64,000 bases of DNA from Bacteroidales bacterium (GTDB lineage Bacteria; Bacteroidota; Bacteroidia; Bacteroidales; P3), in contig JAFVCA010000050.1 of the NCBI GenBank assembly GCA_017479705.1, forward strand, positions 3,385 through 67,384. The letters run 5' to 3'. The notes beneath the pieces were generated by a model. That model was not told where the DNA came from. It made no database searches and saw only the letters and a list, made by a program, of their open reading frames with translations. Positions 16,142 to 47,502 of the stretch are shown here, piece by piece. A program made the position numbers and the translations under genes. Positions within the stretch are counted from its first letter, which is position 1, and every line of letters starts with the position of its first letter.

Positions 16142-17221
16142 ATGATGGACGGATTCAAAAACATAGAGATAAAGAATTTCAGGGGCATCGACCACCTGAA
16201 AATAGAGGATTTTGGGCGTGTCAACATCTTCCTCGGACAGAACAGTTCGGGCAAAAGCTCCGTATTGGAGGCTGTCAACCTCTCCTTGAACATGTCGAAT
16301 CCCGACATGCCGCAGGTAATAAACAATATTCGTGCCCGCAAGTCGTTCAGCACATTCTTGGATGCAAAATACCTTTTCCACAATCTGGACATGTCCAACC
16401 CTCCAGACCTGACGTTGGAGCAAACCGATGGCACGGTGCGGCATCTGACCCTGGGGATGACTTATGTCTTTGATGAATTGGCAGAGCCCAAGAATGAACC
16501 CATCCAGCAAGCGGGAACAATAGTCTATGTAAACACGCTGGAGATAACCTTCAGCACAACTGCCCAGGGGGAAAAGCAAGACTACAAAAGCTGGCTGCGC
16601 ATCAACCCTGCCGGTATTGTAGTCAACCGGAAGATTGCGGACAACTACTTAGAGAGACTGAGAGGGAGGGTGATTTCTGCTGATCTGACCTCCGACAACA
16701 CCGTATGGGATTTGGCTGAACTCTTTAAACGGAACCAGAAGAACATCGTTTTGTCCACATTGAAGCTATTCGATGCCCGGATCAATAGCATCGAAATCCT
16801 TAACGATGATGTATACATCGGTTTTGACGGCATGGCAGAGATGCTCCCATCGCGCATGACAGGCGACGGTCTGAGGCGATATCTGAGTATTGCCGCAAGC
16901 GCAGCCAACCCTATGATGCACATTATCATGCTGGATGAGATAGACAACGGCTTGCACTATTCTGCATACAAAAAACTCTGGGAAGCCCTTTTCATTCTGG
17001 CTGTAGGAACCAACAAACAGCTGTTCGTCACCACCCACAGCAAAGAGACACTATACAGTTTGAGCGAGATGCTGGAAGAACACGCCGAATATAGAAACGA
17101 GCTAAGCTTGTACACGCTGGAGCAGACAAAACTCAAAGGGCACCAGGCCTACAAGTACACCTACGAAGGCCTGTCGGGTGCTTGCGAGAATGATGTGGAA
17201 ATTAGAAGCATGGTTAAATAA
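16142..17221 (+). CDS. ABC-type / AAA_21-like ATPase (SMC/RecF-like, no nuclease domain visible)
   Basis: 359 aa. Walker A GQNSSGKSS, signature-like MTGDGLRR, Walker B IIMLDEIDNGLH, H-loop FVTTHSKE. Confidence 0.85.
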   Translation: MMDGFKNIEIKNFRGIDHLKIEDFGRVNIFLGQNSSGKSSVLEAVNLSLNMSNPDMPQVINNIRARKSFSTFLDAKYLFHNLDMSNPPDLTLEQTDGTVRHLTLGMTYVFDELAEPKNEPIQQAGTIVYVNTLEITFSTTAQGEKQDYKSWLRINPAGIVVNRKIADNYLERLRGRVISADLTSDNTVWDLAELFKRNQKNIVLSTLKLFDARINSIEILNDDVYIGFDGMAEMLPSRMTGDGLRRYLSIAASAANPMMHIIMLDEIDNGLHYSAYKKLWEALFILAVGTNKQLFVTTHSKETLYSLSEMLEEHAEYRNELSLYTLEQTKLKGHQAYKYTYEGLSGACENDVEIRSMVK

Positions 17222-17229
17222 TAACATGA

Positions 17230-18177
17230 ATGAAAACACAATCCTATTTTAACTATATTGAAGAACGCCTCACTTGGCTTTCAACTAGAATTACTTCGAG
17301 AGGGGCGCTAAACATGTATGACATCAATATACATTGCGAAGACTTCTATATGCGTTTGCTGAATCTTCTTTACGGATGGGATTTAGTAAATGCCAACACC
17401 ATTCAGCGGAATAATCCAGCCGTTGACTTGATTTATACGTCGGAAAATATAATCGTTCAGGTTTCATCGACAAACACTACCACTAAAATCCAGTCTTCAC
17501 TGGATAAATTAGATGCCAAATATACTGGCTGTAATTATAAATTTGTCTCTATTGCAAAGTCCACTGACAAACTTAAAGAACACAAGTTCAACACACCTTC
17601 AAATCTCAACATACAATTTAATGCACCCTATGATATCTATGATATTAATACTCTGTTGAATAAAATCAAATCTCTATCCGCAGCGGAAATGGAAGAGGTT
17701 TATAAGTTTATTAAACAAGAACTACATTTTGAAACAGATGAATTGAAACTTGAAACCGGACTTGCTCACGTAATAAACGAACTTTCAGAGATTAAATTAG
17801 AGAATAATGAAGAGAAGTTCGATACTGTTTCTTTCGATATTGATAATAAAATTATAAAAAACAATCTTGCTGTTTTTAAGGACATTATCGAACAATATGA
17901 TGTATATTTCTATGTTGTGCAAAGAATCTATGATGAGTTTGACACGATGGGGAATAATAAAAGTTACGCTGTCCTTCAGACTATCAGAAAAGAGTATTTA
18001 GAATTAAAAACGAAATTCTCTGGCGATGAATTGTATAAAGCCATTGCACAAAATGTCAAAGAAAAATTATCTTTGAGTGCGAATCTGAAACAGTTTTATG
18101 ATGATGATTTAGAATTATATGTTGATATCATTTTAGTTGATGCATTCATTGAATGCAAGATTTTCGAAAAACCCTAA
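17230..18177 (+). CDS. ABC-3C effector component, SMEK-like N-terminal domain
   Basis: 315 aa. FNYIEERLTWLSTRITSRGALNMYDINIHCEDFYMRLLNLLYGWDLVNANTIQRNNPAVDLIYTSENIIVQVSST matches my recollection of SMEK-domain proteins. Gene order is effector, small ORF, then DUF2326 ATPase. Confidence 0.6.
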   Translation: MKTQSYFNYIEERLTWLSTRITSRGALNMYDINIHCEDFYMRLLNLLYGWDLVNANTIQRNNPAVDLIYTSENIIVQVSSTNTTTKIQSSLDKLDAKYTGCNYKFVSIAKSTDKLKEHKFNTPSNLNIQFNAPYDIYDINTLLNKIKSLSAAEMEEVYKFIKQELHFETDELKLETGLAHVINELSEIKLENNEEKFDTVSFDIDNKIIKNNLAVFKDIIEQYDVYFYVVQRIYDEFDTMGNNKSYAVLQTIRKEYLELKTKFSGDELYKAIAQNVKEKLSLSANLKQFYDDDLELYVDIILVDAFIECKIFEKP

Positions 18178-18183
18178 TTAATC

Positions 18184-18408
18184 ATGCTATTGCCAGACAA
18201 TATTCGACCAGAGAACAGTGTATACTACAATGGGGCCTTTGTATTACAAGTACTCCAAAAATCGGGTGATATGCACATGTTTGATTTATACTCAAAAGTT
18301 TCTGAGATTGTACAAATTAGTTTTTCCTTATATTTACTATGTCTTGATTGGCTGTACTTAATCAATGTGGCAAAAATAGAAGGAGAGGAGGTCATATTAT
18401 GTTTATAA
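18184..18408 (+). CDS. ABC-3C middle component (small helical protein)
   Basis: 74 aa. Starts 6 nt after the effector stop and overlaps the ATPase start by 10 nt (ATGTTTATAA). Size and position fit the middle-component family. Confidence 0.55.
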   Translation: MLLPDNIRPENSVYYNGAFVLQVLQKSGDMHMFDLYSKVSEIVQISFSLYLLCLDWLYLINVAKIEGEEVILCL

Positions 18409-20102
18409 AATCATTAACCATTTACAATGACAATGGTGTTATTCGAGAAATTCCTTTTCACCAAGGTCTCAACCTCATTGTTGATAATACACCCAACGCC
18501 ACAACCGAAACTGGAAACAATGTCGGAAAAACAACGGTGCTAAAGTTAGTGGATTTTTGTTTGGGCAAAGATGCCGGTATAATTTATTCAGACCCTGCAA
18601 ATCCCAAAGTGGAACATAAAAATGTCAAGGAATTTCTGATTAATACAAATGTTGTCATTGAACTAATTCTAACAACTGATTTTGAAAGAAGAGATGTCGT
18701 TATTAAACGGAATTTCAAAAATCGCTCGAATGCTATTCGAGAGATAAATGGCGTTAATATTACAAATGAAGAAGATTATCCACAAGTTTTAGAACAAGCC
18801 ATTTGGGGGATTGAAAGTGACAAGCCTACATTCCGTCAAATCATTTCTCATAACATTCGCTATTCTGACCAAAATGTTTCGAATGTTTTAAAAACCCTGA
18901 ATCCATACACCTCTGATACAGAGTACGAATCTTTGTATCTATTCATGTTCGGTTGTAATTTCGAACATGGGAGTATCCGTCATCAAACATTGGAAAAACT
19001 AAAGGCTGACAAAAATTTCAAGACACGTCTGGAAAAAAGCAATAGCAAAAGTACCTATCTTTCACTTTTAGGACTTGTTGATGCTCGAATCGATGAGTTG
19101 CAAAAAAAGAAAGCCAAATTGAACATCAATCCGAACTTTGCAGCCGATATGGATGCTTTGAATGCCATAAAATATCAAATCAACAATCTAAGTTCTGAAA
19201 TCAGCACAACTCAATTGCGCCATGATATGATTCTTGAGGCGCAACGGGAATCGGAATCTCAAAAAGCAAACATTGACACCGCCCAACTAGCATTGATTTA
19301 CAAGCAAGCCAAAGTACTAATTCCAGATTTACAGCGCACTTTTGAAGAATTGGTCGCATACCACAACCAAATGCTTGACAACAAGGTGGGATTCATTTTG
19401 AAATCTTTGCCACGTATTAAGGAAAAACTTGATTCATTACAAAAAGAATTACGAAACCTGCTCATAAAAGAAGATGCTTTGACACAAAAAGTGGTTAAAT
19501 CCAATACGTATGACGAATTAGAAAATCTCATCAACGAATTAAATCAAAAACACCAAGAAAAGGGTGAATATGAGAATATTATCGAGCAAATAAACACAGT
19601 GGAGAATGAGATATTACAATCAGAAAACGAACTGAGAACCATTGATGACGACTTGTTTTCTGATTCATTTAAGAATCATGTTCAAGAGCAAGTTAACAAA
19701 TTCAATATTTTGTTTTCCCAGATATCCCGCCAAATCTATGACGAAGAATATGTCATTAGATTTGATTCTGTACTAAACAAAAAAACCGGAACTAATATCT
19801 ATAAGTTTTCTTCTTTTAATGCCAATCTTAGTACAGGAAAAAAAATGGGCGAAATATCTTGTTTCGACATTGCTTATACCATGTTCGCACGTCAAGAAAA
19901 CATTCCCCATTTGGATTTTATTTTGAACGATAAGAAAGAATTAATGAGCGACAACCAACTTATCCGTATCTCGAAAATAGTTGAAGAACAAAACATACAA
20001 TTTGTTGCTTCCATATTAAAAGACAAACTTCCTTCTGAAATCAATCAACCTAGACTATTTGTGGTGGAATTATCTCAGGACGACAAACTATTTAGAATCT
20101 AA
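18399..20102 (+). CDS. ABC-3C ABC ATPase (DUF2326 / YydD-like, coiled-coil insert)
   Basis: Start moved to the ATG at 18399 (MFIKSLTIYN), which is preceded by aggagaggagg. Walker A TGNNVGKTT, long central coiled coil, signature-like LSTGKK, Walker B-like LDFILND. Confidence 0.7.
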   Translation: MFIKSLTIYNDNGVIREIPFHQGLNLIVDNTPNATTETGNNVGKTTVLKLVDFCLGKDAGIIYSDPANPKVEHKNVKEFLINTNVVIELILTTDFERRDVVIKRNFKNRSNAIREINGVNITNEEDYPQVLEQAIWGIESDKPTFRQIISHNIRYSDQNVSNVLKTLNPYTSDTEYESLYLFMFGCNFEHGSIRHQTLEKLKADKNFKTRLEKSNSKSTYLSLLGLVDARIDELQKKKAKLNINPNFAADMDALNAIKYQINNLSSEISTTQLRHDMILEAQRESESQKANIDTAQLALIYKQAKVLIPDLQRTFEELVAYHNQMLDNKVGFILKSLPRIKEKLDSLQKELRNLLIKEDALTQKVVKSNTYDELENLINELNQKHQEKGEYENIIEQINTVENEILQSENELRTIDDDLFSDSFKNHVQEQVNKFNILFSQISRQIYDEEYVIRFDSVLNKKTGTNIYKFSSFNANLSTGKKMGEISCFDIAYTMFARQENIPHLDFILNDKKELMSDNQLIRISKIVEEQNIQFVASILKDKLPSEINQPRLFVVELSQDDKLFRI

Positions 20103-20116
20103 ATGAAGAAGTATTT

Positions 20117-21154
20117 ATGGCAGAGGAATATAAATATAAGGGTATCGACCTATTCTGTGGGATTGGAGGATTCCGTTTAGCGATGGAGGATAATAATGTT
20201 GACTGTGTCTTTTCGTCCGATATTGACCAATTTGCACAGCAAACATATCAAGCTAATTTTGGAGAAATCCCCGCTGGAGATATCACAAAAATTAGGGCTG
20301 CGGATATTCCAAAGTTTGATATTCTGGCAGCAGGTTTTCCTTGCCAGCCATTCAGCTATGCAGGACTTGGAAAAGGTTTCGAAGACAAGACACGAGGCAC
20401 ACTTTTCTTTGAAATATGCCGGATTTTGTCTTATCATAAACCCAAAATGTTTTTTTTGGAAAATGTGAAAGGGCTTGTTTCTCATAGAAACGGGGAAACC
20501 CTTTCTACTATTCTCTCATCGTTACAAGAGTTAGGATATGATGTTCATTGGAAAGTATTAAGCTCTTTAGATTATGGACTTCCTCAAAAAAGAGAACGTT
20601 GGTACTGTGTCGGTTTTGACAAGAAAACGACATTCCAATGGCCTGATAAAGTAAAGGGCAATCCAACTTTAAGAGATATTATTGATTTATCAGATGATAA
20701 CAAATCACTCAAACTTAGCAAGTTTGAAATGGACCGCATTGAATACCACTTTGCACATTGCAAGCAACAAGAAAGAGTACAACATGATAATTCAAAATAC
20801 AAACCTAATACAAAAAAAGGAAAATATGGTATCTTTTCATTCCAAAAACCTGACGGCTCATTGAGATTTCATGTAGGAGATGTGGCAAAAACCCAAATAC
20901 AAGAAGCATTCTATGCATGTTTAGACACATATGCACCAACCATAATAGCCGGAAGAACTCCTAAACTCTGGGATATTGGCAGAAAGCTTTCTATTCTTGA
21001 AGCAAAACGCTTACAGGGCTTCCCCGATGACTTTGTTATGCCGGTTTCCGATGTACAGGCATATAAGCAACTGGGGAACTCCGTCAGCGTGCCTATCATC
21101 AAGAAAATTATGAAAAATATGATTAAGGCATACGAAAATACAAACGAGAAATGA
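20117..21154 (+). CDS. dcm: DNA (cytosine-5)-methyltransferase
   Basis: 345 aa. Motif I DLFCGIGGF, motif IV GFPCQPFS, motif VI ENVKGL, motif VIII QKRERWYCVG, motif X GNSVSVP. Confidence 0.95.
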   Translation: MAEEYKYKGIDLFCGIGGFRLAMEDNNVDCVFSSDIDQFAQQTYQANFGEIPAGDITKIRAADIPKFDILAAGFPCQPFSYAGLGKGFEDKTRGTLFFEICRILSYHKPKMFFLENVKGLVSHRNGETLSTILSSLQELGYDVHWKVLSSLDYGLPQKRERWYCVGFDKKTTFQWPDKVKGNPTLRDIIDLSDDNKSLKLSKFEMDRIEYHFAHCKQQERVQHDNSKYKPNTKKGKYGIFSFQKPDGSLRFHVGDVAKTQIQEAFYACLDTYAPTIIAGRTPKLWDIGRKLSILEAKRLQGFPDDFVMPVSDVQAYKQLGNSVSVPIIKKIMKNMIKAYENTNEK

Positions 21155-22941
21155 AGTATTTTGATGTTAAAACTGTAGTAAATGCATACAATGGCTTTCA
21201 AGATTGTATGACAAATAAATCTTGGGGTTATCTTGCTCTACTAAAAGGAAGTAAAAGTAGTGTCCACCCTTCAACCCCATACGAAGTTGACTTGAATATA
21301 GTTTCCAACTTCTTAGAAGATATATTCAATTTGTCCCAATCAAAAAAAGAATATGAAGGAGGACGATTTCTATACGTAGTCTTTTCAAACAAATGGGACA
21401 AATATTTTAATGACCAAGGTAAATATATTCCTAATATTTATGATATAATTGTTTGGGCTTATCGTAGAAGAAGTTTTCCTGATAGTATCACTGAAGACCA
21501 TCTCCTTAATTTATTTTCGAACGATTTTAATATACCAACCAATGTAATACAAAATAGTTTCAACACAAAAAAGAAGTTTCTGTCTTTTGCTGACTCATTA
21601 TATTCAGAGAATGATTTAAAATCAGAATTAGGGAGAATTGGGGTTGACGTTTCTAAGAATAATATTGATGCAAAAAAACAAGCCATTGTTGCTGCTCCCG
21701 GAGAAATAAGCAGAGGGCCTTTTATTCAAACATTGTATGCGGGATTGGATATAACAGATTATGTAATAATATTACAATCAAACTACTATTCCCTATATGG
21801 TGCTGAAGAGACAAAAAGTAGTGATAAGAAAAAATACTCGACAGACAATACTCTTACTAGTTTATTTCTGACAAATGAAGTCTTTTCTTCAATCAAGTCT
21901 ACCGGTCTCATATATTCTGATACTCTTATCAAGCGCCTTGCCTTTTCGCTGATGGCTAAGCCTTTTGTTATCCTGAGTGGTTTGGCTGGGTCCGGGAAGA
22001 CGCAGTTGGCGTTGGCTTTTGCCAAATGTATGAGCAAGAATATTGAGGAGCAGGTTTGCACGGTTTCCATCGGGGCGGATTGGACGAACCGCGAGCCATT
22101 GCTGGGTTATCCCAATGCATTGAGAAGCGGCGAGTATGTGATGCCGGAAAGTGGCGTACTGCAATTGCTGATGCGTGCTGAATACGATCCCGCCAAGCCC
22201 TATTTCCTGATTCTTGACGAGATGAACCTCAGCGTGGTGGAACGTTACTTTGCCGATTTCCTCAGCGCTATGGAGTCAGGGGAGAAAATCAAACTCTGGG
22301 ATGGTGGTGAGGAGGTCCCTTCAGAAATATCGCTCCCCAAGAATGTTTTTGTCATCGGCACTATCAATGTGGACGAAACCACTTATATGTTCAGCCCCAA
22401 GGTGCTCGACCGCGCCAATGTGATTGAGTTCAAGATTGCACCAGAGGAGATGGAGCATTATCTAAACGAGAAGAAAGACATCCACCTTGAAAAGGCCTAC
22501 TCGGCCTGCGCTGATATGGCTGTGGATTTTGTGGAGAAAGCAAAGACCCAGATTGAGATAAAGAATGAAGGGGAAAAAGAAATTCTGCTCTCGTTCTTCA
22601 AGGAATTGAAACAGGTCAATGCTGAGTTTGGCTACCGCACGGTGAATGAAATATGCCGTTACCTCCACTTTGCTGGTGAAGATAAGGACGGACTACAGAG
22701 TGACGAAGCCATTGACACCGCCATCTTGCAAAAACTACTCCCCAAGCTGCATGGTTCCCGGAAGAAACAGGTGCCCGTGCTAACTGCCATGTGGAAACTT
22801 TGCCTGAAAGACGGCGCTGCCAAAGAAATAGATGCTGAGTATGACGTGACCGATTTCAAATATCCTGAGTCGGCCGAGAAGATTCAACGAATGTACCACG
22901 CTGTGGTGGACAACGGATTTACCAGTTTTGCAGAAGCTTAA
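21151..22941 (+). CDS. McrB-like AAA+ (AAA_5) GTPase/ATPase restriction subunit with unassigned N-terminal domain
   Basis: 596 aa. ATGA overlap with the dcm stop. Walker A GLAGSGKT, Walker B YFLILDEMN, GTINVDETT...LDRANVIEF is typical of the McrB/LlaJI.R1 family. Residues 1 to ~270 are unrecognised. Confidence 0.8.
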   Translation: MKYFDVKTVVNAYNGFQDCMTNKSWGYLALLKGSKSSVHPSTPYEVDLNIVSNFLEDIFNLSQSKKEYEGGRFLYVVFSNKWDKYFNDQGKYIPNIYDIIVWAYRRRSFPDSITEDHLLNLFSNDFNIPTNVIQNSFNTKKKFLSFADSLYSENDLKSELGRIGVDVSKNNIDAKKQAIVAAPGEISRGPFIQTLYAGLDITDYVIILQSNYYSLYGAEETKSSDKKKYSTDNTLTSLFLTNEVFSSIKSTGLIYSDTLIKRLAFSLMAKPFVILSGLAGSGKTQLALAFAKCMSKNIEEQVCTVSIGADWTNREPLLGYPNALRSGEYVMPESGVLQLLMRAEYDPAKPYFLILDEMNLSVVERYFADFLSAMESGEKIKLWDGGEEVPSEISLPKNVFVIGTINVDETTYMFSPKVLDRANVIEFKIAPEEMEHYLNEKKDIHLEKAYSACADMAVDFVEKAKTQIEIKNEGEKEILLSFFKELKQVNAEFGYRTVNEICRYLHFAGEDKDGLQSDEAIDTAILQKLLPKLHGSRKKQVPVLTAMWKLCLKDGAAKEIDAEYDVTDFKYPESAEKIQRMYHAVVDNGFTSFAEA

Positions 22942-22955
22942 TAACCGATTGGAGT

Positions 22956-23324
22956 ATGGCAAATGAAATAGTGAAAAAAGAGGTTGCGTTGCCAGATTCG
23001 GAACTGCTGACTCTTGCCGATAGGATTGTACGAGTGATTGAAGAAAGCAGATTGGCCTTAGCCATCAGCATCAATGAGACCATGAAGACAACCTATTGGA
23101 GAATAGGGCAGCATATTGTGGAATTTGAGCAGCAAGGCAATGCCCGCGCCAAATATGGGACATCGCTATTGACTAATCTTGCCAGAATACTCAGGGCAGA
23201 AGTGGGACGCGGATACAGTCGACCCAATCTGAACAATATGCGTAAGTTTTACCTGATGTATCCAAATTTTCAGACATCTGACAAATCCGATTCAATATGT
23301 CAGATGTCTGACAAATTAACCTGA
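22956..23324 (+). CDS. DUF1016_N-only ORF (N-terminal fragment of a YhcG-like PDDEXK nuclease)
   Basis: 122 aa. TYWRIGQHIVEFEQQGNARAKYGTSLLTNLARIL...YSRPNLNNMRKFYLMYP is typical of the YhcG N-terminal domain. The C-terminal PD-(D/E)XK half is absent. Confidence 0.6.
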   Translation: MANEIVKKEVALPDSELLTLADRIVRVIEESRLALAISINETMKTTYWRIGQHIVEFEQQGNARAKYGTSLLTNLARILRAEVGRGYSRPNLNNMRKFYLMYPNFQTSDKSDSICQMSDKLT

Positions 23325-23358
23325 TTACGCAAAATGGTGAAGACGATACTGATGTAGT

Positions 23359-25695
23359 ATGGATAAACCTCTTGAAATACCCATCAACAAACCGGAAGGT
23401 GTAAAACTGATAATATACCCTCTGTCATCGAATGCGAAAGTGTTTGAGGAGGAGCAGGCTGATGATTTGGGTGAAGCGAGATGGCAGCTGGTTGAGGGGG
23501 AGGATTATGAGTATGAGTTTCAAGGTGAGCATGGGCCAGCAGTAGGGTACTACTTTAAAGAGCATGAACTTGTTCGCCCATCAAAAAGTACTCCTTCGCG
23601 AGGGTTGATTAAGACAGGCATCTATGTTGGCTGCCTGACTTTGCCTGTTGCCAATCAATCGGGCTTTGAAACGGAAGTGAGCTTTGAGGTGCGTTCCGTA
23701 AAAGTGGATTACAGGGAGGATTATCGAAGCATGCTTCACGACATCACCAGACACTTTACGGATTTGGTAATGATGCAAGGTGCACCTGTCACACAACGGT
23801 TTGAAGTGGATGTCAATGAAGACGGAAAGACGCTATACCAGCAATTTGCATTTATGAGGTCCTTGGTGGACAGCGAAGGGTTTGAAGAAGCCCTGAACAA
23901 GATATTCTACAATCCTATCCATAAGTGGACAGGGACGACCGTAGAGAAAGACATCTGTGCAGTAAAAAGGCTTGGCCGACACGAAATAAAACAGATTGCA
24001 TCCAGCAAGAACCGACTGCCATTAAGTGATGGCCAGGGTATTGAGAGTGTACCACGCAGACTGAATGTTTCCTATAAGAAAGACACTGTCGATGTAGCTG
24101 AAAACCGTTTCGTAAAATATGTATTGCAATCGTTTGTTTCGTTTTGCAGCACCATCCAGCAATGCGACAACGCCAGCCCGAGACTGAAAAACGAGGCTGA
24201 GCTAACAGCCAAGAAACTGACAGGATGGCTTAGCCGCAGTTTCTTCCTTGAGGTGGCTAACCTGCAGGTCATGACACTGAACAGTCCTGCATTGCAAAGG
24301 AAAGACGGCTACAGGGAAGTGTTACAAGCCTGGATGATGTCAAAACTGGCAGCACATATAACGTGGAAAGGCGGCGACAATGTTTATCGGGCTGGAATGC
24401 GTAATGTGGCTGCACTATACGAGTATTGGGTATTCTTCAAGTTGCTTGACATAGTCAAAGAGGCATTCCATCTGGAACTAACAGAAGCAGATGAGAAGAA
24501 GTTGGTAAAAACCGACAAGGACAACATCAATCTTGAACTCAGACAAGGCCGCATGACAATGGTAGGTGGGGAGTTCCATGAAGCCTCCCGCACATTGAAA
24601 GTCAAACTGTATTATAATAGAACTTTCAAGGGGTCAAGTCAGTTATATGGTAGCGGTTCATGGACGACCGACATGCGGCCAGACTACACTTTATCAATTT
24701 GGCCTGGAAATATCAAAGAGACCGAAGCAGAAGAACAAGACCTCATCGTTCATATACATTTTGACGCAAAGTACAAGTTGGACAGAATTCTGCTTAATGA
24801 CAAAGACATCGATGAAATTCATACTTTCAATGATAGTGACGATGAAGACCTGACCGAAGATGAGCTGATTATGAATCAAGAGAAACTTGAGGCGGAAAAA
24901 GGCATTTACAAACGGGTAGATCTGCTTAAGATGCATGCTTACAAAGATGCAATCCGTCGCACCAGCGGGGCATACATTCTTTATCCCGGCACAGAAAACA
25001 AAAGACTCAGAGGTTTTCATGAAGTGTTACCTGGATTGGGAGCGTTCTGTCTCAGTCCAGACAGATTTGAACAAGATTCAAAGGAGATAGAACACTTCTT
25101 GCATGACATATTAGAGCACATGCTCAACAGAGCATCACAGCGTGAGCGTATGGCATATCATACTTATGAAATCCTCAAAGATGAGCCTTTGATGGTTTGT
25201 GAATCCTTGCCAGAGCCATATGGTGATAATCGTAATTTAATTCCGGAGGAGACTTTTGTGTTAATGGGTTCATTTCGCGACGAGAATCATTTGAAGTGGA
25301 TACTCAAAAACAAGATCTATAATACCAGAACAGGGACAAAGAACGGCTCCTTGAGATTGAAACAAGAAATCACAACAGCGAAATATGTCTTACTTCATAG
25401 TGATAGTAAACAACTCATGCTGAGGTTGGGCAACAAAGGTCCTCGAGTGATGTCGAAAGCGGTCTTGGAAAAAATGCCTTATTCTAGTTTGTACTCTCCA
25501 AACTCGGACTATTATGTTGTTTTTGATATCGCTAACGCAGAACCTGAAAAAGAGTTTAAGAATGTCCAATGGAATATCTACAAAATGGGTCAGGACGGGA
25601 TAATAAAACAAGGCCCTTTGAGTGCCGAGCCAGTAGGAGTGTCCTTGGCAACTTTAATGAAATACGTAATAAAAGAATACCCAAACACAGAATAA
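23359..25695 (+). CDS. McrC-like / DUF2357 PD-(D/E)XK restriction nuclease subunit with C-terminal extension
   Basis: 778 aa. Nuclease core MRPDYTLSIW ... HIHFDAKYK ... MHAYKDAIRRTSGAYILYPG follows the McrC-type D..(D/E)xK pattern. The last ~190 aa are unassigned. Confidence 0.7.
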   Translation: MDKPLEIPINKPEGVKLIIYPLSSNAKVFEEEQADDLGEARWQLVEGEDYEYEFQGEHGPAVGYYFKEHELVRPSKSTPSRGLIKTGIYVGCLTLPVANQSGFETEVSFEVRSVKVDYREDYRSMLHDITRHFTDLVMMQGAPVTQRFEVDVNEDGKTLYQQFAFMRSLVDSEGFEEALNKIFYNPIHKWTGTTVEKDICAVKRLGRHEIKQIASSKNRLPLSDGQGIESVPRRLNVSYKKDTVDVAENRFVKYVLQSFVSFCSTIQQCDNASPRLKNEAELTAKKLTGWLSRSFFLEVANLQVMTLNSPALQRKDGYREVLQAWMMSKLAAHITWKGGDNVYRAGMRNVAALYEYWVFFKLLDIVKEAFHLELTEADEKKLVKTDKDNINLELRQGRMTMVGGEFHEASRTLKVKLYYNRTFKGSSQLYGSGSWTTDMRPDYTLSIWPGNIKETEAEEQDLIVHIHFDAKYKLDRILLNDKDIDEIHTFNDSDDEDLTEDELIMNQEKLEAEKGIYKRVDLLKMHAYKDAIRRTSGAYILYPGTENKRLRGFHEVLPGLGAFCLSPDRFEQDSKEIEHFLHDILEHMLNRASQRERMAYHTYEILKDEPLMVCESLPEPYGDNRNLIPEETFVLMGSFRDENHLKWILKNKIYNTRTGTKNGSLRLKQEITTAKYVLLHSDSKQLMLRLGNKGPRVMSKAVLEKMPYSSLYSPNSDYYVVFDIANAEPEKEFKNVQWNIYKMGQDGIIKQGPLSAEPVGVSLATLMKYVIKEYPNTE

Positions 25696-25774: not shown

Positions 25775-26392
25775 ATGACCGACACGATGACACCGGAGCA
25801 GCGGCATCGCTGCATGTCGCACATACGCAGCCGCGACACCAAGCCTGAGCTGCGGGTGCGGCGTTGGCTGTGGAGCCATGGCTACCGCTACCGGCTGAAT
25901 GTGAAGAGCGTGCCGGGCAAGCCGGACATCGTCATGCGGCCTTATCGCACGGCGATATTTGTCAACGGATGCTTTTGGCATGGGCACGGCGTGGAAATTG
26001 AAAATTCAAAATTGAAAAGTGAAAAGGTTGTGGACTCCAGTGCTGCACAGATTGAGAACTCCGCATGCTGCAAGATTCCACAGACCAACCGGGAGTTCTG
26101 GCTCTCGAAGATCAGACGCAACCAGCAGCGCGACCAGCGCAACTATCGCCTTTTGCAGGAGAACGGTTGGCAGGTCATCGTGGTGTGGGAGTGCCAGCTT
26201 ACGCCCTCTACGATAGAACATACCATGCGCGGCGTGGAGCTGTTGCTCAACGAGAATATGCTCGCCCTCTACAGGCACACTCCCGCCACCTACACCCTTG
26301 CTGACGAGCCTCTCCCCCTCGCCGCTGAAGAAATTGAGCGGAGAACCTCCGCGGGTATTAATCTTAATGACTATCCGCATCATTCCGAATAG
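25775..26392 (+). CDS. vsr: Very short patch repair endonuclease Vsr, carrying an in-frame repeat insertion
   Basis: SRDTKPELRVRRWL, FVNGCFWHGH, IPQTNREFWLSKIRRNQQRD, IVVWECQL. GC-rich like the backbone. Confidence 0.9.
   Translation: MTDTMTPEQRHRCMSHIRSRDTKPELRVRRWLWSHGYRYRLNVKSVPGKPDIVMRPYRTAIFVNGCFWHGHGVEIENSKLKSEKVVDSSAAQIENSACCKIPQTNREFWLSKIRRNQQRDQRNYRLLQENGWQVIVVWECQLTPSTIEHTMRGVELLLNENMLALYRHTPATYTLADEPLPLAAEEIERRTSAGINLNDYPHHSE
25994..26026 (+). repeat. Heptamer array (TTGAAAA orientation) inside vsr
   Basis: gaaattgaaaattcaaaattgaaaagtgaaaag, translated as EIENSKLKSEK. Confidence 0.85.
26338..26352 (+). repeat. 15-nt GC hairpin repeat GCGGAGAACCTCCGC (inside the vsr 3' end)
   Basis: Exact copy. 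Translated as ERRTSAG, the same peptide as at the PnuC C-terminus. Confidence 0.9.
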
Positions 26393-26418
26393 GCCTTGGA
26401 GAGGCTTAATCCTATTAA

Positions 26419-26457
26419 CCCCAGAGTGCGAAAATCTCCGATTTTCGCACTCTGGGG
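26419..26457 (+). terminator. 18-bp perfect hairpin downstream of vsr
   Basis: ccccagagtgcgaaaatc-tcc-gattttcgcactctgggg. Confidence 0.6.
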
Positions 26458-38922: not shown

Positions 38923-39914
38923 CCCAGAAACTGAAGGGCACGGTGGAGGGCGACGAGAATGCCCTGATATGGAAGCCTTGCCGTATTGAGGAGGTGGACG
39001 AGGGCGGCATCACCTTCCTTGCCAACCCCAAGTATACACACTTTATCTATGAACGCAAGGCCGCAGCAATCCTCATCAGCCGCGACTTTGTGCTGGAGCA
39101 TCCGGTGGACGCCACTTTGATTCGTGTGGATAACCCTTACCTCTGTGTGGCCAAGGTGCTGCACATGTTCAATTCTGCCGACCGTCCCAAGCGTGGCCGC
39201 AGCATGCGCAGCAGCATCGACCGCACGGCACGGCTGGGCAAGGGCTGCTATGTGGGGGCCTTCGCAGTGATAGGCCGCAATGTACGCATTGGCAACAATG
39301 TGCAGATTTATCCGCAGGTGTATATCGGCGACCATTGCCAGATTGGCGACAACACTATCCTGTATCCGGGTGTGAAGATTTACCGCGAGTGCCAGGTGGG
39401 GCAGAACTGCATCCTGCACGCGGGTGTGGTGGTGGGAGCCGACGGCTTCGGTTTCGCCCCCAAGGGGGACGGCTCGTACAGCAAGATTGACCAGATAGGC
39501 AATGTGGTGATTGAGGACGATGTGGAGATTGGGGCCAACACGTGTGTGGACCGCGCGACGATGGGTTCCACCATCATCCACCGCGGAGCCAAGATTGACA
39601 ATCTCTGCCAGATAGCCCACAATGTCTCCTTTGGCAGCAACACGGTGATGGCCTCGCAGTCCGGCTGCGCGGGCAGCGGCAAGGTGGGCAACAACTGCGT
39701 CATTGCCGGCCAGGTGGGCATTGTGGGACATATCAAGGTGGGCGACCGGGTGACGATTGCCGCGCAGTCCGGCGTGACGCGCAATGTGGGCGACGACTCC
39801 ACGGTGCTCGGCTCCCCCGCTATGCCAGCCGACAGGCAGAAGAAAATCTTTGTGCTGCAACGCAAGCTGGAGGAGATGTATAATGACATTCAGAAATTGA
39901 AAAGTGAAAAGTGA
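38898..39914 (+). CDS. lpxD: UDP-3-O-acylglucosamine N-acyltransferase
   Basis: 338 aa. Hexapeptide left-handed beta-helix repeats. N-terminal LpxD domain ([12 protein letters not shown]). The last codons KLKSEK and the stop lie in a heptamer array. Confidence 0.9.
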
Positions 39915-39989
39915 AAGCGGCGCACCGCCGCTGGTAATAAAACTCACACATTAACACATTCAAACATTCCCACATTCACAAACACATTC
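39893..39989 (+). repeat. Composite cassette: heptamer array + reversed GC box + octamer array
   Basis: gaaattgaaaagtgaaaagtgaaa / gcggcgcaccgccgctggtaataa / ctcacacattaacacattcaaacattcccacattcacaaacacattc. It ends at the ATG at 39990. Confidence 0.9.
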
Positions 39990-41420: not shown

Positions 41421-42654
41421 GATAATGGCCTTTTTGCTGCTGTCGGCAGCCGTGGGGACAGTCAGCTGCCACGGCCAGAACATTAATTCGCCCGACACGA
41501 AGGGGTACCCTTTTGTGCGCTACGAGAGCAACGAGCTGCGCTACGACAGCACGTCCGCTGCCATGCGCTACCTGCTGAACAAGATGCGGCGGGTGGCCAC
41601 GACGGGGCAGGGGACGGTGAACATTGTGCACATAGGGGGCTCGCATGTGCAGGCCGGCGTGTTCCCCAACCAGGTGCGCGTCCGCATGATGCAGCGGTGG
41701 CCTCAGGCCGTGGGTGGCCGCGGGATGGTTTTCCCCTATTCGGCGGCGGCTAAGTGCAACAATCCCGACGACTACAGGGTGCACTGCAAGGAGAAGGTCG
41801 TCCTGACGCGCAATGTGTACAAGGAGCCCGAATATCCATTGGGACTCTGCGGCATCTCCGTCACGGCCAAGGATGTCCCCACCCGCATACAGATGCTCCT
41901 TACCGACAAGAGCGTCGACTACCGCGTGCAGCACATCGTGGTGCTGGGCTATTCGCCCCAAGGGGTGCTGCCCACACTGGGTTTTGACGGGAACGAGATG
42001 GAGCCCTCATACGTCGACACGGCTACCCACCGCTATGTGTTCAACCTGCTGCAGCCCGTCGACTCTTTCGACATTGTGCTGCCCTGTTCCGAGGGGCAGA
42101 CTTTCACCCTGACGGGTGTCTGTTTAGGCAACCGCCGACCGGGGTTCTCGTATCATTCCATCGGTGTGAACGGTGCTGCGGTGCCGGACTACCTGAAGTG
42201 CAACCTCACCTCCGACCTCCGGCTGCTGCGGCCCGACCTGGTCATCTTCGGCATAGGCATTAACGATGCCCACGAGAAGACTTTCGACACCGTGGTCTTC
42301 AAGAATAATTACCTTGCCCTCTGCGACTCTATCCGCAAGGTCAACCCCAAGTGCGCCTTCATCTTTGTCACCAACAACGACAGCTATCGCAAGACGGGTC
42401 GCCGCCGCTATGCCGTCAACACCAACGGCCCGTTGGCCCGCGATGTGTTCTATCGTCTGGCGGAGCTGACGGGTGGAGCCGTCTGGGACCAGTTTGAGAT
42501 TATGGGTGGTCTCAAATCCATGGAGAAGTGGCAGAAGGCGGGGCTTGCCCAGAAGGACAAAGTCCACTTTACCCGCGCGGGCTACCGCCTAATGGGCGAC
42601 CTCTTCTTCAATGCACTCTACAAGGAACTTTATAAATTGAAAATCGAAAATTGA
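41410..42654 (+). CDS. SGNH-like protein, second copy with degenerate block I
   Basis: Start taken at MRNRIMAFLLL, overlapping the upstream stop. VHIGGSHVQ, FGIGINDAH, DKVHFTRAGY. The C-terminal KLKIEN and the stop lie in a heptamer array. Confidence 0.55.
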   Translation: MRNRIMAFLLLSAAVGTVSCHGQNINSPDTKGYPFVRYESNELRYDSTSAAMRYLLNKMRRVATTGQGTVNIVHIGGSHVQAGVFPNQVRVRMMQRWPQAVGGRGMVFPYSAAAKCNNPDDYRVHCKEKVVLTRNVYKEPEYPLGLCGISVTAKDVPTRIQMLLTDKSVDYRVQHIVVLGYSPQGVLPTLGFDGNEMEPSYVDTATHRYVFNLLQPVDSFDIVLPCSEGQTFTLTGVCLGNRRPGFSYHSIGVNGAAVPDYLKCNLTSDLRLLRPDLVIFGIGINDAHEKTFDTVVFKNNYLALCDSIRKVNPKCAFIFVTNNDSYRKTGRRRYAVNTNGPLARDVFYRLAELTGGAVWDQFEIMGGLKSMEKWQKAGLAQKDKVHFTRAGYRLMGDLFFNALYKELYKLKIEN

Positions 42655-42697
42655 AACACGACTAACACATTCACACATTCACGAATTAACACATTCA
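42634..42697 (+). repeat. Composite cassette: heptamer array + octamer array
   Basis: aaattgaaaatcgaaaattgaaacacgactaacacattcacacattcacgaattaacacattca. Confidence 0.9.
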
Positions 42698-45196: not shown

Positions 45197-45251
45197 GCGC
45201 CCGTAATCACTACCGGCGGTGCACCCTATTTCAATTTTCAATTTTCAATTT
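45197..45251 (+). repeat. GC box + heptamer array at the LTA-synthase frame break
   Basis: gcgcccgtaatcactaccggcggtgcaccctatttcaattttcaattttcaattt. Compare 31142-31208. Confidence 0.85.
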
Positions 45252-47408: not shown

Positions 47409-47502
47409 AAGGCGATAATCATTGAAAGGTGAAAATTGAAAATTGAAATGTGGCTACCATACTGGCGACCCGTTTCAATTTTCAATTTTCACTTTTCAAT
47501 TT
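47405..47502. repeat. Inverted pair of heptamer arrays between convergent genes
   Basis: attgaaaggtgaaaattgaaaattgaaa (47421-47448) pairs with tttcaattttcaattttcacttttcaattt (47473-47502) across a 24-nt spacer. Both flanking stop codons lie in the arrays. Confidence 0.9.

Follow-up and report, generated by a model that had tools for sequence, protein, structure and literature searches.

Rickettsia palindromic elements (RPEs; Ogata et al. 2000) are described in the summary given by PMC10969869 as dispersed selfish repeats that reside in intergenic spaces and also in frame in unrelated genes. According to the same summary, they are translated within the gene product and have been judged compatible with the fold of the protein. 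Repeats of another kind, the direct repeats of the heptamer TAACTGA, are abundant and mostly intergenic in marine Beggiatoaceae, cyanobacteria and a few Bacteroidetes (MacGregor 2015, PMC4679880). They carry forward stop codons in every frame and can overlap gene ends by only a little, and their insertion into a coding sequence (CDS) in forward orientation was predicted to terminate the gene (PMC4679880). Here we describe an insert of 78 nt that lies in frame within the zinc-binding loop of a vsr gene and is built in part from GAAAATT heptamers. The gene resides on a stretch of 64,000 nt (the window) from contig JAFVCA010000050.1 of an uncultured rumen bacterium of the Bacteroidales.

The window's own genome (G000) is a 2.1-Mb metagenome-assembled genome (MAG), 75% complete and distributed over 53 contigs. 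Besides G000, 40 genomes were searched, 24 of which belong to the same genus. G-numbers refer to the genomes compared and L-numbers to the vsr loci of relatives; the taxonomic labels of MAGs are approximate. Our preferred reading, to which we assign a probability of roughly 70%, is that the insert is a tolerated and translated loop, derived from selfish repeats, in a working vsr gene, and that it is analogous to the RPEs.

The vsr gene and its insert

The vsr CDS (25775..26392, + strand) encodes a protein of 205 aa. It is recognized by the Pfam model for Vsr (PF03852; 4.5e-33, 113 bits, cut-off 27) and by TIGR00632 of NCBIfam (146.6 bits, cut-off 97.85). The match to TIGR00632 is broken into two stretches by the insert; for the insert-less orthologue L012 it runs in one stretch over residues 1-119 of 119. 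When the AlphaFold model of the window protein was compared with the PDB by Foldseek, the top matches were 1cw0_A (E 9.9e-10, TMt 0.70) and 1vsr (TMt 0.73). A single match to vsr was found in the G000 assembly.

For E. coli Vsr (1VSR/1CW0), we take Asp51 and His69 to be the catalytic residues, Phe67 and Trp68 to be intercalating, and Cys66, His71, Cys73 and Cys117 to be the zinc ligands. By sequence alignment, the catalytic, intercalating and zinc-ligand residues are all retained in the window protein. In the alignment with 1cw0, the motif CFWHGH (25970..25987, + strand) supplies the equivalents of Cys66 and His71 as zinc ligands, of the catalytic His69 and of the intercalating pair Phe67/Trp68. 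One of the two adjacent cysteines Cys98-Cys99 (26066..26071, + strand) corresponds to the zinc ligand Cys73, both in this alignment and in an alignment of 42 Vsr proteins (A1). In A1, D51, F67, W68, H69 and G70 are invariant, while C66, H71 and C140 (the equivalent of C117) are nearly so. A first-pass annotation of the sequence had quoted the E. coli motif as CFWHGHHC, which needs correction, as it actually reads CFWHHHHC.

The same annotation had proposed that 26 extra codons are inserted in frame between CFWHGH and CCKIP. This is fully borne out by the split TIGR00632 match and by phmmer alignment with E. coli Vsr, in which residues 9-72 of the window protein pair with 8-71 and residues 99-143 with 75-119, and 26 residues replace C-Y-L. 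The insert (GVEIEN...IENSA; 25988..26065, + strand, 78 nt) is translated as GVEIENSKLKSEKVVDSSAAQIENSA, is preceded by CFWHGH and followed by CCKIPQTN, and sits between the zinc ligands His71 and Cys73 (E. coli numbering). It is absent from L011-L015. The net gain amounts to 24 codons over insert-less relatives, which read H-EG-C at this place, and to about 15 codons over the shortest CCKIP-type relatives, whose loop exceeds that of L012 by nine residues.

Three parts can be distinguished in the insert. The first is an array of about five imperfect GAAAATT heptamers in sense orientation (25991..26026, + strand), detected with a period of 7 by Tandem Repeats Finder (TRF) and having many BLAST matches across the genome. 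It is followed by the spacer GTTGTGGACTCCAGTGCTGCACAG (VVDSSAAQ; 26027..26050, + strand), probably a decayed GTGC...GCAC hairpin module, intact modules being present in L066, L003 and L022. The right edge, ATTGAGAACTCCGCA (IENSA; 26051..26065, + strand), contains the (I)ENS edge of most CCKIP-type Vsr proteins and may be either an old heptamer unit in which TGA was changed to TCN or a set of native loop residues. For positions 26027-26065 as a whole, comparison with relatives points to a small-hairpin/spacer module that has decayed, with a remnant unit, ATTGAGAAC, behind it.

The fold of the insert as RNA is not more structured than that of shuffled sequences (z +0.53), in comparison with z-scores of -2.2 to -2.4 for the hairpins of relatives. 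A regulatory RNA structure in the window copy was rejected on these grounds. Inspection of both insert junctions revealed neither terminal inverted repeats nor a direct repeat spanning them, and no target-site duplication emerged when the filled site was set against the empty one of L012; a miniature inverted-repeat transposable element was therefore rejected as well. We also considered that the segment is removed before the protein matures, be it as a mini-intein, by excision at the RNA level or by translational bypassing. The residue following the insert is indeed a cysteine, and relatives carry a hairpin at the 5' edge. However, with 26 aa the segment is far shorter than an intein (at least about 130 aa), it is devoid of intein motifs, begins with Gly-Val and ends with Ser-Ala where an intein would have Cys/Ser and His-Asn, and the unstructured RNA does not fit a self-splicing element either. 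Moreover, a segment that is removed would need neither avoidance of stop codons nor upkeep of the reading frame, yet both are strictly observed, as detailed below. We thus regard removal as extremely improbable.

Repeat origin of the insert

The heptamers of the insert belong to a family that is dispersed over the genome. With one mismatch allowed, the motif GAAAATTGAAAA has 25 matches in the window, as opposed to 0.34 expected. The heptamer copy makes up the first 33 nt of the insert, and positions 25995-26025 agree in 30 of 31 nucleotides with an intergenic array on another contig of the same genome (C45:23552-23582). The sole mismatch, G>C at position 26007, makes a TCA of the array's only in-frame TGA, so that the array-consensus stop is replaced by a serine codon (26006..26008, + strand). 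The TGA form, AAAATTGAAAATTG, is present in 49 copies in the genome, and in 111 when G/T variants are included. The TCA form, AAAATTCAAAATTG, exists in a single copy, and this copy is the one in vsr.

In total, the assembly harbors 64 arrays of at least three units. Thirty-three of them abut the 3' ends of long open reading frames (ORFs) in sense orientation, 29 are intergenic or otherwise placed and one lies within an ORF in antisense. Only one of the 64, the array in vsr, is located in sense orientation within an ORF. The 33 arrays at 3' ends provide the respective ORFs with their final codons and a TGA stop, giving rise to tails such as KLKSEK, KLKIEN and KLKSEN; within the window, arrays of this kind are found at 39894-39916 and 42634-42656 and, on the minus strand, at 45229-45251 and 47473-47502.

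Read forward, the heptamers contain a TGA in each of the three frames. The in-frame TGA has been dealt with lineage by lineage: it reads TCA in the window gene as well as in L002, L003, L008, L022 and L066, and GGA in L004. The Asn-Ser of the window protein (AAT TCA) is retained in orthologues. The repeat origin claimed in the first-pass annotation accordingly stands for the heptamer array, on the basis of TRF and the 30/31 identity; the likeness of the remainder to one half of the GC hairpin GCGGAGAACCTCCGC, also claimed there, was not recovered by BLAST. In the sense in which RPEs form a dispersed family, the heptamer half of the insert is part of such a family and positions 26027-26065 are not. 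According to our preferred reading, mini-repeats of the intergenic spaces would have built the insert from a GAAAATT array, a decayed hairpin/spacer module and the IENS edge.

Selection, predicted fold and turnover of the loop

Substitution rates were determined for nine insert-bearing orthologues from the same genus (36 pairs) over a core of 127 codons, with the insert left out. The median dN/dS is 0.12 and the maximum 0.19, and dS ranges from 0.8 to 1.5 in the eight pairs that include the window gene. Upkeep of the frame was examined by scanning for the flanking motifs in any frame. The loci had been retrieved by tblastn, which favours recognisable genes; among them, the insert-bearing ones are in frame and free of stops in 69 of 69 cases from species-representative genomes and in 61 of 61 cases from metagenome contigs. 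These 130 loci stem from rumen and gut Bacteroidales; between them they show 118 different peptides and 24 different lengths, with total loops of 21-72 residues. Given that the building blocks have a period of 7 or 8 and contain TGA in all forward frames, the open frame in 130 of 130 cases shows that translation across the segment is under purifying selection. In-frame placement in a loop of a conserved, unbroken gene, a hallmark of RPE-type insertions, is thus found here. Selection on the segment itself is probably limited to keeping the frame open, with TGA changed to TCA and changes in length fixed in multiples of three.

Two rival explanations can be assessed against these data. The first-pass annotation had left the choice between a tolerated loop and an inactivated relic that merely looks intact. 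Two features are in line with a relic, namely the position of the insertion between two metal ligands and the replacement of the native C-terminus by a second repeat, which is described further below. However, dN/dS stays at about 0.12 with dS close to saturation, all 130 frames are open, the stop has been converted from TGA to TCA, the core is confidently modelled by AlphaFold, the catalytic and zinc-binding residues are kept, and the gene is the sole vsr amid several C5-methyltransferases. A relic is therefore highly improbable. On the combined evidence of sequence and model we state that vsr is not a relic, and the Vsr protein encoded in the window is probably active; of the two options offered by the annotation, the tolerated loop is the one that holds.

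The second rival is a phase-variable switch, in which gain or loss of one 7-base unit toggles Vsr and thereby puts methylated cytosines into a local mutator state that can be reversed. Contingency loci are classically built in this way, with an array of period 7 within a CDS, and the number of units in related arrays does differ between genomes. Yet the array of vsr consists of only about five imperfect units, none of the 130 natural loci is out of frame, and close relatives differ by whole modules of 54 or 63 nt rather than by single units. A switch of this kind appears very unlikely to us.

Whether the insert loops out was addressed by structure prediction, as had been suggested in the first pass. 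In the AlphaFold2 model of the window protein, the core reaches predicted local distance difference test (pLDDT) values above 90, while residues 77-95 remain below 50 and form coil. In the model of a relative with an insert of 73 aa, the core likewise exceeds 90 and residues 77-140 stay below 50. The insert is hence predicted to loop out as a disordered coil with the Vsr core kept. A charged, disordered loop of this type would disturb neither the core nor the catalytic residues nor any of the four zinc ligands.

The first-pass annotation had furthermore called for an alignment of orthologues, and reasoned that a segment of similar length unrelated to the repeat would speak against its claim. 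Orthologues do possess segments at this site, and the insert is thus not private to the window gene. These segments are not unrelated to repeats, however, but are themselves repeat-derived and specific to their lineages. It follows that the insert is a snapshot of an expansion segment that is old and turns over fast. Ten species of the same genus carry in-frame fillers at the exact position, with a net length of 42-81 nt. Five species have the canonical H-EG-C, among them that with L012, where the CCKIP context is present without a filler. The fillers consist of a small hairpin, for example GTGCGGCC-GGA-GGCCGCAC or GTGGC-GGA-GCCAC, followed by a tandem array, whose unit depends on the species: GAAAATT; AGTTAAG, ATTCAAG or AATTGAA; or, in G013 and G017, octamers of the type AATG(C/T)GTG.

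Among the best 120 protein hits (67-85% whole-protein identity), 90 distinct fillers of 26-73 aa occur. They are composed of one to three tandem modules of 18 or 21 residues, in which IENSKLK(S/I/N)EK is combined with either AVDYGAAQ or DVCSEDSLAAQ; at the DNA level, the module is discernible in L066. More distant CCKIP-type Vsr proteins come from Prevotella, other Bacteroidales MAGs and two organisms not labelled as MAGs. Their total loop, taken as the stretch between His71 and the FW anchor further down and therefore including CCKIPxxNxx, measures 21-72 residues, and they contribute the additional units GGTTCAA, AGTTGAG, GGAATTA and AGTTAGA. GC-rich hairpin repeats also occur in the Vsr loop, encoding LTPNPSPKGEG in L055, L087, L098, L034, L036 and L182 and GRDARRAS in L023. 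Both peptides are frequent in spurious small ORFs of Bacteroidota. With GC hairpins occupying the loop in other lineages, unrelated classes of repeats converge on one site in Vsr.

The content of the loop is exchanged quickly. L021 (RUG360) groups with the window Vsr in the core tree and contains a filler of the octamer type, as against the heptamers of the window. The content has thus been swapped fast, while the edges were retained. The shortest filled forms, with loops nine residues longer than that of L012, are free of repeats. Two steps may be envisaged, an old extension of the loop with conserved x-V and (E)NS-x-CC edges and its later colonisation by repeats. On our preferred reading, the site is an old permissive expansion segment of the CCKIP-type Vsr subfamily of rumen and gut Bacteroidales, the content of which is repeatedly overwritten by the lineage's own hairpin, heptamer and octamer cassettes. 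Growth proceeds, on this reading, by tandem duplication of modules of 18 or 21 codons. Turnover probably runs by replication slippage, by unequal recombination between modules, which changes the length by 54 or 63 nt at a time, and by gene conversion in which cassettes from intergenic spaces take part. In protein trees of the core (127 columns, 15 and 83 rows; mostly unresolved), the well-supported branches force at least three changes by gain or loss.

The fillers can be compared with the repeats of the genomes in which they occur. Matches to AGTTAAG number about 150-160 in G002 and in G010, and G000, G014, G021 and G007 have none. The octamers AATG(C/T)GT(G/T) are matched 133 times in G017, the highest count, 87 times in G000 and not at all in G005; the Vsr filler of G017 is of the octamer type and that of G005 non-repetitive. 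GAATTGA-type units were also counted, with 159 matches in G004, and so was GAACTTA, with 66 matches in G014 only. The species-specific loads suggest a concerted, lineage-wise turnover of mini-repeats. In some loci, L071 and L026 for example, units are shared by the Vsr filler and the flanks. The density of arrays of period 7 or 8 in the flanks is 0.56 per 10 kb for insert-less and 1.0-1.7 per 10 kb for insert-bearing loci, a difference to be taken as a trend only.

A loop that is hypervariable and yet bounded by constant edges raises the question of co-option, in which the loop has acquired a selected role, such as tuning of DNA binding, interaction with a partner such as MutL or escape from an inhibitor, and repeats merely serve as raw material. 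An insert of at least nine residues is present in nearly all CCKIP-type Vsr proteins, including 38 of 41 rows of a Prevotella-rich clade, the x-V and (E)NS-x-CC edges are conserved across proteins that are only 47-50% identical, and the position immediately past CFWHGH is beside the DNA-intercalating wedge. Against a selected role stand the hypervariability in content and length (21-72 residues, 118 distinct peptides), a variation that tracks DNA units rather than protein constraint (S, I or N arising from GAAAAGT, GAAAATT or GAAAAAT), the predicted disorder of the segment and the existence of two CCKIP-type proteins, L012 and L099, without it. On balance we consider co-option quite unlikely. 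The architecture might also be an artefact of MAG assembly or binning. G000 is indeed an incomplete MAG of many contigs (75%, 53 contigs), and repeats are prone to mis-assembly, but the same architecture recurs in well over 100 independent assemblies from different studies and is always in frame, which renders this explanation practically negligible.

Alternatively, the His71-Cys73 loop of CCKIP-type Vsr could be a specific, reused landing site for undescribed modular mini-cassettes of rumen and gut Bacteroidales made of a small hairpin and an array of 7- or 8-nt units, the filler of each lineage representing a fresh site-directed integration or conversion instead of the drift of one old insert. 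Possibly, hairpin-recognising machinery of a RAYT-like Y1 transposase would be the agent of such movement, and vsr would then serve as a natural reporter of cassette movement. We view the landing site as a tentative and rather unlikely proposal.

Several observations weigh against our preferred reading of a tolerated, repeat-derived loop. When positions 26027-26065 were compared by BLAST with the whole G000 genome, only chance matches of 11-14 nt in ordinary coding DNA were obtained. The insert begins just four residues past the intercalating Phe67/Trp68, and the AlphaFold models contain neither zinc nor DNA, such that they are also compatible with a defect in metal or DNA binding. ATTCAAG, the unit of the G010 filler, has only three matches genome-wide, two of which lie inside the vsr insert; its scarcity implies that not all fillers mirror an abundant family. 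In a k-mer comparison of inserts with their own 12-kb flanks, which offer only a small sample of each genome, L071, L089, L026 and L050 were positive and most others scored zero. The tie between insert content and the repeats of the own genome is therefore only partly established. Finally, the 127-column core tree fits a single origin followed by losses just as well as several gains.

Surroundings of vsr and comparison with known systems

A gene for a C5 cytosine methyltransferase (20117..21154, + strand; PF00145, 1.2e-94) lies 4.6 kb upstream of vsr on the same strand. It is one of at least five C5-methyltransferase genes in G000 and likely the source of the T:G mismatches that Vsr would repair; enzymes of the Vsr family nick such mismatches on the 5' side of the T at the site of the cognate methylase. 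The string methyltransferase, 596-aa ORF, DUF2357/PD-(D/E)XK nuclease and Vsr recurs with both insert-bearing and insert-less vsr genes. The gene string of the island at 20117-25695, in which the 596-aa ORF has no Pfam match, was encountered again at L031, L032, L079, L062, L050 and L044; for L031 and L032, identity to the 596-aa and DUF2357 proteins of the window is 72-83%. In L021, from the closest species, identity reaches 92% for the cupin/CMD gene downstream, and no gene of the upstream island was found within 6 kb. Upstream of the methyltransferase, an ABC-3C-type defence module (16142-20102; AAA_15/AAA_21 ATPase, SMEK with CTD10, and DUF2326) is located in an AT-rich island.

The 3' end of vsr is formed by a second repeat-derived piece (26331..26395, + strand; copies identified by BLAST). 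It is made up of AAATTGA, the hairpin GCGGAGAACCTCCGC, GGTATTAAT... and, further on, ...CATCATTCCGAATAGGCC. This element supplies the last approximately 20 codons of the gene (IERRTSAGINLNDYPHHSE) together with its TAG stop, and copies that are 91-100% identical reside on contigs C16, C21, C43, C47 and C2. The IERRTSAGINLNDYPHHSE tail is missing in all other aligned Vsr proteins, even in relatives with 82-85% whole-protein identity, and hence looks recent. The preceding C-terminal motif LP(L/M)AAE(D/E) (26320-26330; A183, A184, E185) is invariant in 42 of 42 aligned Vsr proteins. It is also present in paralogue-like proteins of the same genus that are only 39% identical, and E. coli Vsr has no such tail; the motif may be a partner-binding peptide. 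Directly downstream of vsr, at 26408-26457, a long perfect hairpin (CCCCAGAGTGCGAAAATC / GATTTTCGCACTCTGGGG) is preceded by ATCCTATTAACCCC. Elsewhere in G000, the same GGGGTTAATAGGAT motif, together with CCCCACACT...AGTGTGGGG hairpins, flanks a lone Y1 transposase gene on both sides (C41:7100-8010; PF01797, 81 bits, C41:7395-7848). The transposase and its flanking hairpins look like a RAYT/REP pair.

The vsr locus illustrates that short tandem repeats carrying stop codons in every frame can be absorbed into the metal-binding loop of an enzyme with an essential fold and that, once there, they furnish new protein sequence that evolves fast. The concept of selfish DNA within coding genes would thereby be extended from the RPEs of Rickettsia to another type of repeat and another phylum. 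With 130 loci and 24 lengths, nature has conducted an experiment on the tolerance of a zinc-site loop, and the fixed, alignable site offers a means of following the turnover of abundant, undescribed mini-repeat cassettes of rumen Bacteroidales. Annotation pipelines should take into account that such inserts split matches to family models without signifying pseudogenes.

How, then, does the locus compare with described systems? The window protein has the family, the fold, the catalytic residues and the Cys-His-Cys-Cys zinc ligands in common with E. coli Vsr (1VSR, 1CW0). It differs in the spacing between His71 and Cys73, which is one residue in E. coli Vsr, 26 in the window protein and up to 73 in relatives. 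As in contingency loci of host-adapted bacteria, a short tandem repeat with a period that is not a multiple of three resides within a coding region. In contrast to such loci, the array in vsr is short and imperfect, 0 of 130 loci are out of frame, and variation proceeds by whole in-frame modules. The TAACTGA repeats differ in unit, which is GAAAATT here along with lineage variants, and in host, a member of the rumen Bacteroidales in our case; furthermore, a forward array has here been accommodated inside a CDS and made readable by a point change. With RPEs, the insert shares that it is a dispersed repeat located in frame in a coding gene and translated. RPEs are palindromic units of about 150 bp with a conserved peptide, whereas the 78 nt of the insert combine 7-nt units with a spacer into a mosaic that has no significant fold. 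The fillers at this locus are mosaics of 7- or 8-nt arrays and tiny hairpins with stops in all three frames of the forward strand, and they occupy one fixed site, where the content has been exchanged between one lineage and the next. In summary, the insert behaves like an RPE and departs from RPEs in structure, in that it has neither the length of about 100-150 bp nor the long palindrome and conserved peptide that define them.

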